DNA of 64,000 nucleotides, taken from contig OZ271918.1 in the NCBI GenBank assembly GCA_965602015.1, positions 224,001 to 288,000 of the forward strand, written 5' to 3'. This DNA comes from Salinispira sp. (GTDB lineage Bacteria; Spirochaetota; Spirochaetia; DSM-27196; Salinispiraceae). This document shows positions 12,320 through 55,367 of the stretch, piece after piece (positions within the stretch are counted from its first letter, which is position 1; every line of letters begins with the position of its first letter). Under the pieces are notes generated by a model, which was given only the letters and a program-made list of their open reading frames with translations, did not search any database and was not told the origin of the DNA. A program made the position numbers and the translations under genes.

Positions 12320-12892
12320 CTAACTGCTGGCCTGGACCGTAAGAAGCAGGCTGTACACCCCGCCTTCCCCGAGAAATGAAAAATCGACCACAACTCTTCC
12401 GTCAGGTATTCGCCACTGGGCTTCCTTCACCTTGTAACCCCGGTGCGCCTTTTCGGCCGGATTGATGAACTCATTATGACCCTGATCTTCCCTCCAGGGC
12501 GTACCGTAGAGCACGCTGTACTTGTTGATAAAATCATTGGCAGCCTGATACGTCCGTTCGAACAGATCTGCAGACACATCGGTCTGGTGAGCGTTGAACA
12601 TAAACCAGCTGAGTCGGTCTCCGTGAAATGAATATACCCAGCGGCCGGGAATGCCGAACTCCCTGCTTTGGCGGATGAACTGATCCCCCTCATTGACCCG
12701 GGCCTGGGGGTACAGAGCACGAAAATCATCAATACTCATTCCCAGCCGTATTCCGCGTTCCGCATCGGACGAGGAGGAATACCCTTGGGATATTTCCTGT
12801 TCTGAAGGATTGCAGGAAAGCAGCGCAAAACTAATTGCCGCAATAAGGGCGGACCTCATGATGAATCTCAGCGGGAGCGTAAACCTGGTCAT
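12320..12892 (-). CDS. Hypothetical lipoprotein
   Basis: Hydrophobic leader ending in LLSC (lipobox-like); start may be the later ATG (MRSALI...). Confidence 0.6.
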   Translation of the reverse strand: MTRFTLPLRFIMRSALIAAISFALLSCNPSEQEISQGYSSSSDAERGIRLGMSIDDFRALYPQARVNEGDQFIRQSREFGIPGRWVYSFHGDRLSWFMFNAHQTDVSADLFERTYQAANDFINKYSVLYGTPWREDQGHNEFINPAEKAHRGYKVKEAQWRIPDGRVVVDFSFLGEGGVYSLLLTVQASS

Positions 12893-12976
12893 ACGGGTGT
12901 GTATCCTGAAGTGAATTGGGTATGATTTTATATCAGAAAATCACCACCGCTGTCAATTTAATATGAAGTGATGGTA

Positions 12977-12994
12977 TGAAAGCGGTGCCTCCCC
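12977..12994 (+). repeat. Left sub-terminal inverted repeat of IS copy 1
   Basis: tgaaagcggtgcctcccc, exact reverse complement of 14252-14269. Confidence 0.95.
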
Positions 12995-13045
12995 CGAGAT
13001 CCTGCCAGTCAGGGTCTATATTAAATACCGGAGGAGGACAACCAA

Positions 13046-14098
13046 ATGAGTAGTATTATTATATCCCTCGACAGCCATAAACGGTATACCGTGGCTGCAA
13101 TTGAGGACGAAAAAGGAAGGAAATCCTCACAGCGCATAGAACATTCTCACGGGTGTATTCGTGATTTTCTCCAACAATTTGAGCCGGGACAGGAAGTCGC
13201 ACTTGAAACAATCGGAAGTTGGTACTGGATTGTGGATGAGATTGAGGAGGCCGGCATGAACCCCTTGCTGGTACATGCCGGTAAGTCAAAATTGATGATG
13301 GCCATGTTTAACAAAACTGACAAACTCGATGCTGAAGGTCTCAATAAACTTCAAAAAGCAGGCACACTGCCTACTGTGTGGATTCCACCAGGAGAATTGC
13401 GTGATAAACGAGAACTCTATCGAACCCGGATGCAGTTCGTTCAGGAGTTGATACGTGAAAAGAACCAAATTCATGCCGGGTTCGAGAAATATGGGTTTCG
13501 ATTCAATGATGTGAGCGATCTGTTCGGAAAAGCAGGTACAGAAGCCATGAAGAAGGTAATGCCAAAACTCCCCGAGCATACCCGCACCATGATGAAACTC
13601 AAGCTCGATAATCTCGCGTTTATTAAGCAATCTATCACCGACTGCGAACAACGAATGCATGAAGCGTTTGATGAAAATGCTGAAATGAAGTTGGTGAAAT
13701 CCATTCCCGGGATCGGATTTATTCTCAGCGCAGTCATTGTGCATGAAATTGGAGACATACATCGCTTTAAGACCGCTGAACATTTTGCATCATACTGTGG
13801 TACAACGCCGCGCGTTCACTCGAGCGGAGGTAAAACTCATTATGGTCGAACATCGAAAGCATGTAATCGATACTTGAAGTGGGCACTTACTGAAGCAGCT
13901 AATGTAACCTGTCTTAATCAAAGAAATTGGGCGAACCGACATACGGTAAAACTCTACAAGAGAGTTCGTACTAAACGTAATCATAAGGTTGCAATAATCG
14001 CCGTGGCACGGCACTTAGCAGAAGCAATATTTTGGATATTGCAGAAAGAACAGCATTACAAAGATCCTGCATTAGCGGGTTTGTCCAGACAGGGGTAA
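13046..14098 (+). CDS. IS110-family DEDD recombinase/transposase
   Basis: RuvC-like DEDD residues D9, E54, D92, D95 (SLDSHK, ALETIG, KTDKLDA); C-terminal IPGIG...YCGTTP...HSSGG with predicted catalytic Ser; GGAGGAGG ribosome-binding site. Confidence 0.96.
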   Translation: MSSIIISLDSHKRYTVAAIEDEKGRKSSQRIEHSHGCIRDFLQQFEPGQEVALETIGSWYWIVDEIEEAGMNPLLVHAGKSKLMMAMFNKTDKLDAEGLNKLQKAGTLPTVWIPPGELRDKRELYRTRMQFVQELIREKNQIHAGFEKYGFRFNDVSDLFGKAGTEAMKKVMPKLPEHTRTMMKLKLDNLAFIKQSITDCEQRMHEAFDENAEMKLVKSIPGIGFILSAVIVHEIGDIHRFKTAEHFASYCGTTPRVHSSGGKTHYGRTSKACNRYLKWALTEAANVTCLNQRNWANRHTVKLYKRVRTKRNHKVAIIAVARHLAEAIFWILQKEQHYKDPALAGLSRQG

Positions 14099-14251
14099 GC
14101 GCGTTTTTGGGGCTACAGCGCGAATACGAGGCTGTGCAAAGTGATTGCGACACCCCTGGAAGGACATTTTCATGCCACGTGGATGGCGGAGATATGACTC
14201 GGACAAAACCGATTTGCAGAATTTTTGTAATAGAACATTGAAAACTCTTGC
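14082..14251 (+). ncRNA. Putative bridge/seek RNA of IS copy 1 (ends approximate)
   Basis: Stems 14082-86/14162-66, 14090-96/14152-58, 14114-19/14131-36; loop segments match the target (14103-14113, 14139-14143) and the donor junction (14168-14177, 14190-14197). Confidence 0.75.
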
Positions 14252-14269
14252 GGGGAGGCACCGCTTTCA
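14252..14269 (-). repeat. Right sub-terminal inverted repeat of IS copy 1
   Basis: ggggaggcaccgctttca, followed by gata and then the target TG. Confidence 0.95.
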
Positions 14270-14273
14270 GATA

Positions 14274-14416
14274 TGCCCCCAAAACAGCTGATATTGTGCG
14301 CTAAGTATCAATCCTGGCTGGAAATGCAAATGAAGTGACAAAAAACCTTGAGATTAGTCCCTTACTTCTTGTTCTTAAGGCATTTGCATCAATTCCATCA
14401 GCTGTTTTGGGGGCAC
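14274..14416. repeat. MITE/REP-like element with ~20-bp terminal inverted repeats; left tip interrupted by IS copy 1
   Basis: tgcccccaaaacagctgat (14274-14292) and atcagctgttttgggggcac (14397-14416); internal complementary segments tgcaaatg/catttgca. Confidence 0.8.
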
Positions 14417-14445
14417 TACCAATTTGACAAAGGCCGGGGAGGCAA

Positions 14446-15303
14446 TCAAAGCAGCTCCCGCAGCTTACCGATGCTCAGGGGGGCACAGCCTTCGTAGTGA
14501 TTATTAACATTGATAATCGTTTCAATACCCCGTTCTTCGAGCATGCGGGCAGCCTTGGCTATGAGCATCAGGTCGTCATCCATGGGGCGGATTATTCTTC
14601 CCCATTTTTTTTCGCTGAGCCGGTCCATTTCTTTGCGTTCGGGCCCGTGCAGACGAAGCACCACGGGGGCCTTTGTGCCAATATCTGCAATAAAGCTCTC
14701 AATGGTTTTGTATGCCGGAGGCAGGTAATACCCATGGATCAGTACCGGTGAAATCGAGTATCGGTCGAGCAGACGGAAAAATCCGCCGCTGAAATACTGG
14801 GGATTGCGGATTTCGACGCCGAACCAGGGTTCATTTTCCGAACGGATATCTTCGGGGAGTGAGGAGAAAAAATCCTCCAGAAGATTCATAAAGCTGTCGG
14901 CGCCGGTCATCTTCCGCTTATTCAAATACTCAAACTGGAACATCAACACCCGGGTTTTGGGAATTATCGGAGAGAGTCTTCGCAACACCTCCTCCAACAC
15001 ACTCCGGGATAAAAAGTCCGGGTTGATTCTCAGGGGACCGCCGGATCCCCGATAGTGGGTGAGGCTCAGGCTGTCCGGGAGCTTAATGGTGAAGCGGAAA
15101 TCCTCGCCCACGCTTGCCGAGTAATCCAGCGCCGTTGCGCTGTCGGGAAGCTTTGTTCCCCCGTCAAATAGGCTCCAGAACCACTGATCTATTTCAACGG
15201 TGGAAAAAAGACGGGAGTACTCGGAAAGATAGTTTTCGCAGTCCGGGGAATATACGATGTCAGTCCATTCAGGATACTTCCAGCTGCAGGTTCCAATACG
15301 CAT
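14446..15303 (-). CDS. DUF72 domain protein
   Basis: MRIGTCSWKY..W, TVEID, F.FTIK, VEIRN, LRLHG, NNHYEG. Confidence 0.88.
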   Translation of the reverse strand: MRIGTCSWKYPEWTDIVYSPDCENYLSEYSRLFSTVEIDQWFWSLFDGGTKLPDSATALDYSASVGEDFRFTIKLPDSLSLTHYRGSGGPLRINPDFLSRSVLEEVLRRLSPIIPKTRVLMFQFEYLNKRKMTGADSFMNLLEDFFSSLPEDIRSENEPWFGVEIRNPQYFSGGFFRLLDRYSISPVLIHGYYLPPAYKTIESFIADIGTKAPVVLRLHGPERKEMDRLSEKKWGRIIRPMDDDLMLIAKAARMLEERGIETIINVNNHYEGCAPLSIGKLRELL

Positions 15304-53913: not shown

Positions 53914-54057
53914 GTGCCCCCAAAACAGCTGATTTTATGACCGTAAAACAAGGTGTGAGAATGATGTACACGATTTTTGGCGATGAGCGAAATGAACGGC
54001 AGCTAATTCCTGTCCCGAAAAATGATTAGTCGGTTTAAATCAGCTGTTTTCGGGGCA
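53914..54057. repeat. MITE/REP-like element with terminal inverted repeats; right tip interrupted by IS copy 2
   Basis: gtgcccccaaaacagctgattt (53914-53935) and aaatcagctgttttcggggca (54037-54057). Confidence 0.82.
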
Positions 54058-54079
54058 TATCTGAAAGCGGTGCCTCCCC

Positions 54080-54249
54080 GCAAGAGTTTTCATTGTTCTA
54101 TTACAAAAATTCTGCAAATCGGTTTTGTCCGAGTCATATCTCCGCCATCCACGTGGCATGAAAATGTCCTTCCAGGGGTGTCGCAATCACTTTGCACAGC
54201 CTCGTATTCGCGCTGTAGCCCCAAAAACGCGCTTACCCCTGTCTGGACA
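54080..54249 (-). ncRNA. Putative bridge/seek RNA of IS copy 2 (ends approximate)
   Basis: Same guide-like segments as copy 1; one visible substitution, outside the guides. Confidence 0.72.
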
Positions 54250-55285
54250 AACCCGCTAATGCAGGATCTTTGTAATGCTGTTCTTTCTGCAATATCCAAA
54301 ATATTGCTTCTGCTAAGTGCCGTGCCACGGCGATTATTGCAACCTTATGATTACGTTTAGTACGAACTCTCTTGTAGAGTTTTACCGTATGTCGGTTCGC
54401 CCAATTTCTTTGATTAAGACAGGTTACATTAGCTGCTTCAGTAAGTGCCCACTTCAAGTATCGATTACATGCTTTCGATGTTCGACCATAATGAGTTTTA
54501 CCTCCGCTCGAGTGAACGCGCGGCGTTGTACCACAGTATGATGCAAAATGTTCAGCGGTCTTAAAGCGATGTATGTCTCCAATTTCATGCACAATGACTG
54601 CGCTGAGAATAAATCCGATCCCGGGAATGTATTTCACCAACTTCATTTCAGCATTTTCATCAAACGCTTCATGCATTCGTTGTTCGCAGTCGGTGATAGA
54701 TTGCTTAATAAACGCGAGATTATCGAGCTTGAGTTTCATCATGGTGCGGGTATGCTCGGGGAGTTTTGGCATTACCTTCTTCATGGCTTCTGTACCTGCT
54801 TTTCCGAACAGATCGCTCACATCATTGAATCGAAACCCATATTTCTCGAACCCGGCATGAATTTGGTTCTTTTCACGTATCAACTCCTGAACGAACTGCA
54901 TCCGGGTTCGATAGAGTTCTCGTTTATCACGCAATTCTCCTGGTGGAATCCACACAGTAGGCAGTGTGCCTGCTTTTTGAAGTTTATTGAGACCTTCAGC
55001 ATCGAGTTTGTCAGTTTTGTTAAACATGGCCATCATCAATTTTGACTTACCGGCATGTACCAGCAAGGGGTTCATGCCGGCCTCCTCAATCTCATCCACA
55101 ATCCAGTACCAACTTCCGATTGTTTCAAGTGCGACTTCCTGTCCCGGCTCAAATTGTTGGAGAAAATCACGAATACACCCGTGAGAATGTTCTATGCGCT
55201 GTGAGGATTTCCTTCCTTTTTCGTCCTCAATTGCAGCCACGGTATACCGTTTATGGCTGTCGAGGGATATAATAATACTACTCAT
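54233..55285 (-). CDS. IS110-family DEDD recombinase/transposase
   Basis: Identical to the copy 1 protein except S219Y (KSIPG to KYIPG). Confidence 0.96.
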   Translation of the reverse strand: MSSIIISLDSHKRYTVAAIEDEKGRKSSQRIEHSHGCIRDFLQQFEPGQEVALETIGSWYWIVDEIEEAGMNPLLVHAGKSKLMMAMFNKTDKLDAEGLNKLQKAGTLPTVWIPPGELRDKRELYRTRMQFVQELIREKNQIHAGFEKYGFRFNDVSDLFGKAGTEAMKKVMPKLPEHTRTMMKLKLDNLAFIKQSITDCEQRMHEAFDENAEMKLVKYIPGIGFILSAVIVHEIGDIHRFKTAEHFASYCGTTPRVHSSGGKTHYGRTSKACNRYLKWALTEAANVTCLNQRNWANRHTVKLYKRVRTKRNHKVAIIAVARHLAEAIFWILQKEQHYKDPALAGLSRQG

Positions 55286-55367
55286 TTGGTTGTCCTCCTC
55301 CGGTATTTAATATAGACCCTGACTGGCAGGATCTCGGGGGAGGCACCGCTTTCATACCATCACTATG

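Follow-up and report, generated by a model that had tools for sequence, protein, structure and literature searches.

A predicted two-loop bridge RNA downstream of an IS110-family recombinase gene, with guides matching the terminal repeats of an IS1-like element

Introduction

What directs an IS110-family element to the tips of one short repeat? The window analysed here (the whole stretch of 64,000 nucleotides) holds two copies of such an element, and an earlier reading made from the letters alone (the sequence-only reading) had proposed that the end of the recombinase gene and the region downstream fold into the target-binding loop of an IS1111-type bridge or seek RNA programmed against a host repeat. 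The target-binding loop is borne out by covariation between guides and flanks in relatives; a second, donor-binding loop at 14163–14198 had been missed. With a probability of about 0.88, the downstream region is predicted to encode a two-loop bridge RNA that steers the element to the tips of IS1-like repeats.

The element and its recombinase

The features of the element and its surroundings in the window are as follows.

12969–14273, forward strand: IS110-family element, 1305 bp, with the TG core counted once (at the left end)
12969–12970, forward strand: left TG core, preceded by the left-target AAG at 12966–12968
12971–12976, forward strand: right-donor arm (the left tip of the element), predicted partner of the right donor guide
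12977–12994, forward strand: left subterminal inverted repeat, 18 bp, a perfect match to 14252–14269
13046–14098, forward strand: DEDD recombinase, 350 aa, with D9, E54, D92 and D95, and S260 by alignment
14252–14273, forward strand: right subterminal inverted repeat and left-donor tip
14274–14415, no strand assigned: 142-bp MITE with 19-bp terminal inverted repeats, the left one (TG core first) being the right target
53915–54057, no strand assigned: 143-bp MITE, one end of which the second window copy targets
54058–55362, reverse strand: second window copy of the element, with 2 differences and its RNA at 54120–54255

The recombinase carries the Pfam domains PF01548 and PF02371 and scores 226.8 bits against NF033542 (cut-off 140). 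It joins a DEDD RuvC-like domain to a Transposase_20 domain with the G--P----SG serine, the combination that defines the IS110 family, and catalytic roles are predicted for its residues from IS621 by alignment; the match to the IS621 PDB entry is confined to residues 189–333 (E 1.7e-11). Also as in IS110, there is no duplication beyond the short core (AG-TG on the left at 9/9 sites). Insertion is oriented and site-specific, and occupied and empty repeats differ by the element and one TG only.

The DNA layout is that of IS1111. The inverted repeats are subterminal, with extensions of 8 (left) and 4 (right) bp from the perfect repeat, or 7 and 3 bp when one mismatched outer pair is counted, which is the IS1111 arrangement. 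The downstream non-coding region is the longer one, also an IS1111-type trait, and the right end exceeds the left in 98 of the 98 family elements compared; a perfect inverted repeat of at least 9 bp occurs in 89. The protein, on the other hand, shows neither full-length kinship with the IS1111 transposases nor their motif. Its identity is 21–22% with proteins of the ISEc11 and IS4321 families and 31–32% with haloarchaeal and rhizobial IS110 proteins, and it has GT-P where the IS1111 group has GL-P----S(T)G; GL-P occurs in none of the 94 proteins, out of 98, that show the motif pattern. Because of the 21–22% identity to ISEc11/IS4321 and the absent GL-P, the element is kept out of the IS1111 group proper: on identity and motif, it is an IS110-family member with an IS1111 DNA and RNA layout. 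The label given by the sequence-only reading thus fits the repeats, the right-end RNA and the guide order, and fails for the transposase. No close relative of the element was found (best 61%), and a relative at about 50% is present in 3 of 60 related genomes.

The sequence-only reading knew two occupied sites, whereas the genome (G000) has 10 copies, 99–100% identical to one another, at nine independent insertion sites. AG-TG is read at all 10 left junctions. The guides described below are identical across all ten RNA regions, with single changes in two copies, at 14162 and at 14181. A match of at least 5/6 to TTGACA, located 14–24 nt before the right core, would form a junction -35 motif in 90 of the 98 elements; that of the present element is weak against the family, matching 3/6. 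No circle joint was found in four contig sets of one sample, a search limited by the loss of rare forms from contigs.

Some copies have distinctive surroundings. The copy at G000:C1:1706984-1709278 (L002) has an IS3-type element inserted within it, and a broken, unrelated IS110 gene lies 300–900 bp downstream. The copy at G000:C1:1213485 sits right behind a tRNA-Met gene (L009:1301-1376), where an autonomous IS1-like copy ends.

Fold and extent of the predicted RNA

The RNA and its guides are predicted at the following positions.

14076–14211, forward strand: predicted full bridge RNA, with closing helix 14076–86/14201–11 and the donor guides in a three-way junction
14088–14160, forward strand: target-binding domain, with helices 14090–96/14152–58, 14100–03/14146–49 and 14114–19/14131–36
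14104–14113, forward strand: right target guide, 9 nt plus C14113 facing the core G (one-core-base register)
14137–14145, forward strand: left target guide, with guide 14137–41, core TG 14142–43 and putative handshake 14144–45 (equal to the first two donor bases)
14163–14172, forward strand: right donor guide and core-pairing CA, a weak match with 3 Watson-Crick pairs and 2 wobbles in 8
14173–14188, forward strand: donor-loop inner hairpin, 14173–77/14184–88 (helix 5, paired in 97.2% of cells)
14189–14198, forward strand: left donor guide, with 14190–94 equal to the right tip of the element, core TG 14195–96 and putative handshake 14197–98

Four of the five helices come from RNAalifold, and the closing helix was added by eye. 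In 58 relatives the five-helix structure has 91.4% of cells paired, with changes on both sides at 25 of 31 pairs, and none of 500 shuffles scored as high. The closing helix is itself paired in 76.7% of cells, 8 of 8 pairs show changes on both sides, and it belongs to the minimum-energy fold of 14074–14213. The recombinase stop codon falls within the scaffold, 5 nt 5' of the right target guide, as it does in 74 of the 98 elements.

All four helices proposed by the sequence-only reading form when 14082–14166 is folded alone (z -4.14, 0/200 shuffles as good), and the target-binding domain 14088–14160 also folds by itself (z -2.73). The outermost one, tgtcc/ggaca (closing at 14162–66), is left without support by the homologues and was rejected: it is paired in 38% of cells among the 58, and 361 of 500 shuffles scored as high. 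Sliding it by -3 to +3 gave 16–49% of cells paired, on a column mapping that is approximate, as the present element has 2–3 extra bases there.

A covariance model (R1) built from the 58 relatives, with the present element left out, matches 14072–14220 with 86.9 bits (E 5e-22). The model finds all 10 copies in G000 and nothing else; it has no match in the genomes G001 and G002, and Rfam has none across 12800–14500. A 59-bit match to the RNA model lies at G009:C92:6298-6459 (L194), on a contig for which the protein search at E 1e-40 listed nothing, and is possibly a solo or decayed bridge RNA.

Guides covary with flanks across the family

Does the predicted loop track the insertion site? In the present element, the sequence-only reading had matched 14103–14113 to the target as its reverse complement, with 10 of 11 positions agreeing. 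The match stands as counted, and its single mismatch does sit on the target base that varies between C and G; G14103, however, is a scaffold base: it is G in 97 of 98 elements, and 20 of 97 relatives have a complementary base facing it in the target. The guide proper is 14104–14112 with C14113, matching at 8 of 9 positions. Extra pairing at G14103 is nonetheless possible, because the site at 331373 retains the facing C. On the other side of the loop, AAGTG and the left flanks of both window copies read as that reading had described them.

The consensus of the element's own targets is AG-TG-CCCCnAAAA. Eight of the nine right-guide positions match at 8 of 10 right junctions; the guides of the 97 other elements match the same junctions at no more than 5 of the first 7 positions. 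The left guide is tight at AG only and looser than in the family, its positions 3 and 4 matching at 4 of 9 sites each. The left donor guide matches at 5 of 6 positions and the core. Taken alone, the 10/11 match is modest, since one as good arises somewhere in 26 of 3000 dinucleotide shuffles of 14061–14250. The strength of the guide-target match comes from family covariation, and not from that single match.

Loci for the family test were gathered with a protein alignment of 40, taking the best 80 of 385 genome matches and the best 80 of at least 551 metagenome matches. With one copy of the present element and three loci from related genomes included, 164 loci were examined, of which 148 had flanks, 127 had both end motifs and 115 an RNA parse, for which only scaffold motifs and pairing were used. 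Of these 115, 11 were left out for short flanks, 4 for unequal cores and 2 for a wrong parse; 98 elements remained, with one row re-anchored by hand. The test set (n=76) holds one relative per 90%-identity cluster, without the present element; its proteins are 46–58% identical.

This is the check in homologues that the sequence-only reading had asked for, and the result is strongly positive for both target guides. Right target guides match their own right flanks at 385 positions, against a mean of 176 and a maximum of 217 in 2000 permutations, and left target guides match their own left flanks at 313, against a mean of 130 and a maximum of 165 in as many. Right-guide positions 1 to 6 match in 74, 70, 69, 53, 52 and 40 of 76 (expected 30, 38, 23, 20, 22 and 19), and left-guide positions 1 to 5 in 74, 69, 67, 65 and 36 (expected 26, 30, 21, 25 and 24). 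The signal persists at a 75% identity cut (n=38), and once the large 'AC' target class is set aside the remaining 18 representatives match at 97 of 126 positions, against 36 expected. Because covariation ends at position 6 (position 7, 21/76, p=0.27; none for positions 7–9), pairing at positions 7–9 is no more than putative here, and the long right guide of the sequence-only reading, set beside a short left one, is supported for its first six positions only.

The donor loop covaries as well. In the right donor guide, position 3 agrees with the element's own end in 56 of 76 and position 4 in 59 (27 and 26 expected); in the left donor guide, positions 2 and 4 agree in all 76, against 43 and 65 expected. 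Guides of both loops thus covary with the target and with the joined ends, as the definition of a bridge RNA has it. The 98 elements hold 70 distinct guide pairs, and two relatives that are 88% identical (L098 and L101) have different targets, each matched by its own guides. Within the RNA, the complement of the top strand lies 5' of the match to the bottom strand, the order described for IS1111 seekRNAs (PMC11187229).

Several features of the relatives were noted alongside. In 49 of the 98 elements (L025–L176), across many phyla, the target is a REP-like repeat ending CTCG(C/G)AA-TG-AC. The right ends of L023, L116, L122, L128, L108, L109 and L167 measure about 400 bp against the usual 190 or so; the extra sequence lies inside the element, and in L167 upstream of the RNA. 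The flanks of L052, L057, L060 and L175 resemble a tRNA T-arm or anticodon-arm by eye, and ARAGORN found no gene in these tRNA-like flanks, in either the interrupted or the rejoined loci.

The target repeats

The target that the sequence-only reading had called a host repeat in fact forms the ends of an IS1-like element and of its MITEs, as their terminal repeat. The right junctions of 7 of the 10 copies enter this 19-bp repeat, and the insertion point is its tip. G000 has 123 such ends, 7 of them occupied and 116 free. Among 45 paired ends, 11 flank an element of 1246–1248 bp encoding a 377-aa transposase-like protein, and most others bound MITEs of 42–145 bp. An unoccupied sibling of the 142-bp MITE in the window lies at G000:C1:464379.

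The 1247-bp element, at G000:C1:15719-16965 (L001) with 10 further copies, is unclassified and shares its 19-bp terminal repeats with the MITEs. Its protein has no Pfam match and scores 35.2 bits against NF033558 (IS1 transposase), under the cut-off of 100; most of its 130 relatives lack names. 'IS1-like' is a label only, because the IS1 match is sub-threshold, Pfam gives none and the relatives are mostly unnamed. Neither a profile score over the cut-off nor a target-site duplication, the marks of the IS1 family, was found: no direct repeat flanks the autonomous copies with both ends free. Intact copies are bordered by AG...CT, of which the AG may be part of the element or of the site that it entered. 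G000 holds no empty paralogous site for the element, and the orthologous regions in G001 and G002 are too diverged (68–72%) to fix its end. The 19-bp repeat has 63 matches in G001 and none in G002.

Two sites lie outside the repeat. At G000:C1:331373 the whole guide span is matched, after which the sequence departs from the repeat, and at G000:C1:1709278 the guide matches at 6 of 9 positions, a weak off-target site. The full pattern occurs at 65 unoccupied sites, every one in the repeats. All 9 independent sites have AG before the core, whereas of the 116 free repeat ends 67 do (p=0.025 by Fisher's test with the 7 sites in the repeat). This bias is not significant among MITE ends alone (p=0.064); free ends of the autonomous element have AG at all those listed with flanks. 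The wobble-compatible G form of the variable base is not favoured, with 4 C and 3 G at occupied ends and 65 C, 50 G and 1 T at free ones.

Core register and putative handshake bases

In 86 of the 98 elements, CA (or a close variant) stands opposite the TG core; in the other 12, the present element included, C alone stands there and the guide is shifted by one base. These registers are called type A and type B, our own labels, type B being the one-core-base register. Read in the shifted register, 9 of the 11 other one-core-base elements match at 5–7 of the first 7 guide positions. A two-core-base register was rejected for the present element, as it gives 6/8 against 8/9. A tree of 63 proteins puts the number of changes in this label at 9, and well-supported branches force at least 7 of them; the present protein sits on a long, unsure branch. 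The one-core-base relatives (L051, L057, L058, L060, L083, L084, L089, L090, L098, L101 and L151) are scattered over the tree, and L052 (two-base) is a close sister of L057 and L060 (one-base), at 85% identity.

The handshake bases of IS621 come after its top-strand guides and favour exchange of the top strand (PMC11208158). In the present family, handshake-like bases follow the bottom-strand guides. In the donor loop, the first of them is the same as target base 1 in 57 of 76 elements, and the second the same as target base 2 in 55 (34 and 44 expected), which is significant at the 90, 75 and 70% cuts, on few independent lineages and with permutations that ignore kinship. In the target loop, compared with the donor tip, position 1 is invariant and position 2 weak (p=0.004 to 0.07; at the 75% cut p=0.067). 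Of the two putative donor-loop handshake bases of the present element, one agrees with the target and the other with its own donor. Because handshake-like bases follow the bottom-strand guides, the 'reversed' guide order of IS1111 is likely the IS621 layout read from the other strand, and bottom-strand exchange first is therefore predicted; we infer this strand order from handshake placement. Taken from the opposite strand, the RNA has its long guide first and its short guide with the handshake bases second, as in IS621.

Proposed mechanism and alternatives

One loop of the RNA would bind the two strands of the insertion site, AG-TG-CCCCnAAAA, by base pairing, and the second loop would do so with the two strands of the element's ends once these are joined; insertion by the recombinase would then take place at the TG core common to both. 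By analogy with IS621, ISEc11 and CazIS110-1, a circular intermediate may form, whose junction would make a promoter; the RNA would be processed, possibly also into a target-only form of about 73 nt; and a recombinase tetramer would exchange strands at the core. If the IS621 layout is read from the opposite strand, the bottom strand would go first.

Alternatively, the working species could be a target-only seekRNA, a hairpin of about 73 nt (14088–14160), in which case protein at the subterminal repeats would do most of the reading of the ends, and this copy's donor loop would be dispensable or in decay. For ISEc11 an 82-nt seekRNA is enough (PMC11187229), and a 77-nt target-loop RNA makes up 90% of the RNA bound in CazIS110-1 (10.1101/2025.10.25.684509); here the hairpin folds by itself, and the element's own right donor guide pairs weakly. 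The same study of CazIS110-1 nevertheless reports that excision and integration in vivo need the full RNA, and in the present family the donor guides covary with element ends, the donor hairpin and closing helix are conserved, and the element's own left donor guide still matches at 5 of 6 positions plus the core. This makes a target-only RNA unlikely as the sole working species, though full and target-only species could coexist.

It is harder still to credit a choice made by protein, in which, for example, the protein binds the repeat or the IS1-like transposase sitting on it, and the RNA match is incidental. The repeat is longer than the guide, 7 of 9 sites lie in it, and a 10/11 match turns up in 26 of 3000 shuffles; against this, the same loop positions track unrelated flanks in relatives (70 guide pairs among 98 elements; L098 and L101), and two of the element's own sites lie outside the repeat, so that we consider such a choice very improbable. 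Finally, element and repeat might move as one composite, in which case the right flank common to the copies would be carried along and not selected as a target. Seven of 10 copies do have the same 19-bp right flank. Beyond 19 bp, however, the sequences differ: some belong to one or the other end of the autonomous element, others to several types of MITE; unoccupied siblings exist, 116 repeat ends are free of the element, and relatives end at the same motif distance with unrelated flanks. A composite can hardly be entertained on these grounds, and a full two-loop bridge RNA is the preferred reading.

Relation to known systems

The comparisons here are with the available portions of the cited papers. 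In its downstream non-coding position and subterminal inverted repeats, the RNA resembles the seekRNAs of ISEc11, ISKpn4, ISPa11 and ISPst6 (IS1111 family), and it shares with ISEc11-type seekRNAs the top-strand complement placed 5' of the bottom-strand match and natural reprogramming among relatives (PMC11187229). It differs in having a covarying donor loop, the available text of that paper describing target matches only. The transposase also differs from those of ISEc11 and IS4321, with GT-P and not GL-P----S/TG in addition to the low identity. With the IS621 bridge RNA it shares two loops, four guides, a 2-nt core and, putatively, handshake dinucleotides by the short guide (PMC11208160, PMC11208158, PMC13626964), and the recombinase shares the composite DEDD and serine active-site residues (here by alignment). 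Unlike in the published accounts of IS621, the RNA lies in the right end with the guide order reversed relative to the gene, the core is TG (CA on the other strand) and not CT, the donor guides lie in a three-way junction and the putative handshake positions fall on the bottom-strand guides. Donor guides in a multi-loop are noted for many IS1111 RNAs (PMC11208160).

As to targets, the ends of other mobile elements are a familiar destination.

IS4321 and IS5075 reportedly target the terminal repeats of the Tn21 family. IS1111 inserts in QMITE2 (PMC5896051). The present element likewise has an IS1111-type layout and enters the repeat ends of a mobile element or MITE; it differs, as far as these cases are described, in that it goes to the 19-bp ends of an unclassified IS1-like element and of MITEs of 42–145 bp.

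How much of this is new? The mechanism (since 2024), the downstream position of the RNA and the targeting of transposon ends and MITEs are already described, and because of this the surprise is limited. The literature searched, which lay outside ISfinder and bioRxiv supplements, gave no account of this element or of handshake bases in an IS1111-layout RNA, and clade-specific DNA and protein motifs were absent from the searchable supplements of PMC11208160 and PMC11187229. A large survey predicts 32,190 bridge RNAs in 86 models (10.64898/2026.10.21.760802, available part), and such surveys may well include this clade. It is tempting to join the strands into one picture: a widespread, uncatalogued IS110 clade, distinct in protein from true IS1111, with a complete downstream two-loop bridge RNA, handshake bases on bottom-strand guides, a 'reversed' order that would be IS621 turned around and exchanging the bottom strand first, and a one-base register slip that arose or reverted at least 7 times, the present element included. 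That conjunction is offered tentatively, and we think it rather doubtful that all of its parts hold together.

RNA-guided IS110 recombinases are an active topic in genome editing, and this clade is unusually easy to read, with a nearly fixed scaffold, four exchangeable guides and, in 98 elements, 70 guide pairs supplied by nature. With it a point in dispute can be put to a direct test, namely whether elements of the IS1111 layout work with target-only seekRNAs by a different mechanism or with full IS621-like bridge RNAs. If the flipped reading were true, the IS1111 order would be the IS621 machine turned around, with the bottom strand exchanged first. Ecologically, the element is a parasite of a parasite, tracking a growing set of about 120 repeat ends.

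One rearrangement deserves mention. In the tandem pair at G000:C1:3399669-3402532 (L003; copies at 3399669 and 3401229), the element and 255 bp of a flanking gene are duplicated. At the tandem junction, 3400972, the right tip of the element is joined to a chromosomal TG, so that the left-donor arm and core only are kept; it is not a target site. Placing the right donor guide 3 bases further 3' also seemed to fit this junction and was rejected, because in the family register those bases belong to the hairpin. In keeping the left-donor arm and core, the junction resembles the LD-only or half-match recombination described in the available parts of 10.64898/2026.08.14.744561 and 10.64898/2026.08.31.748434; unlike those studies, it records a single natural event.
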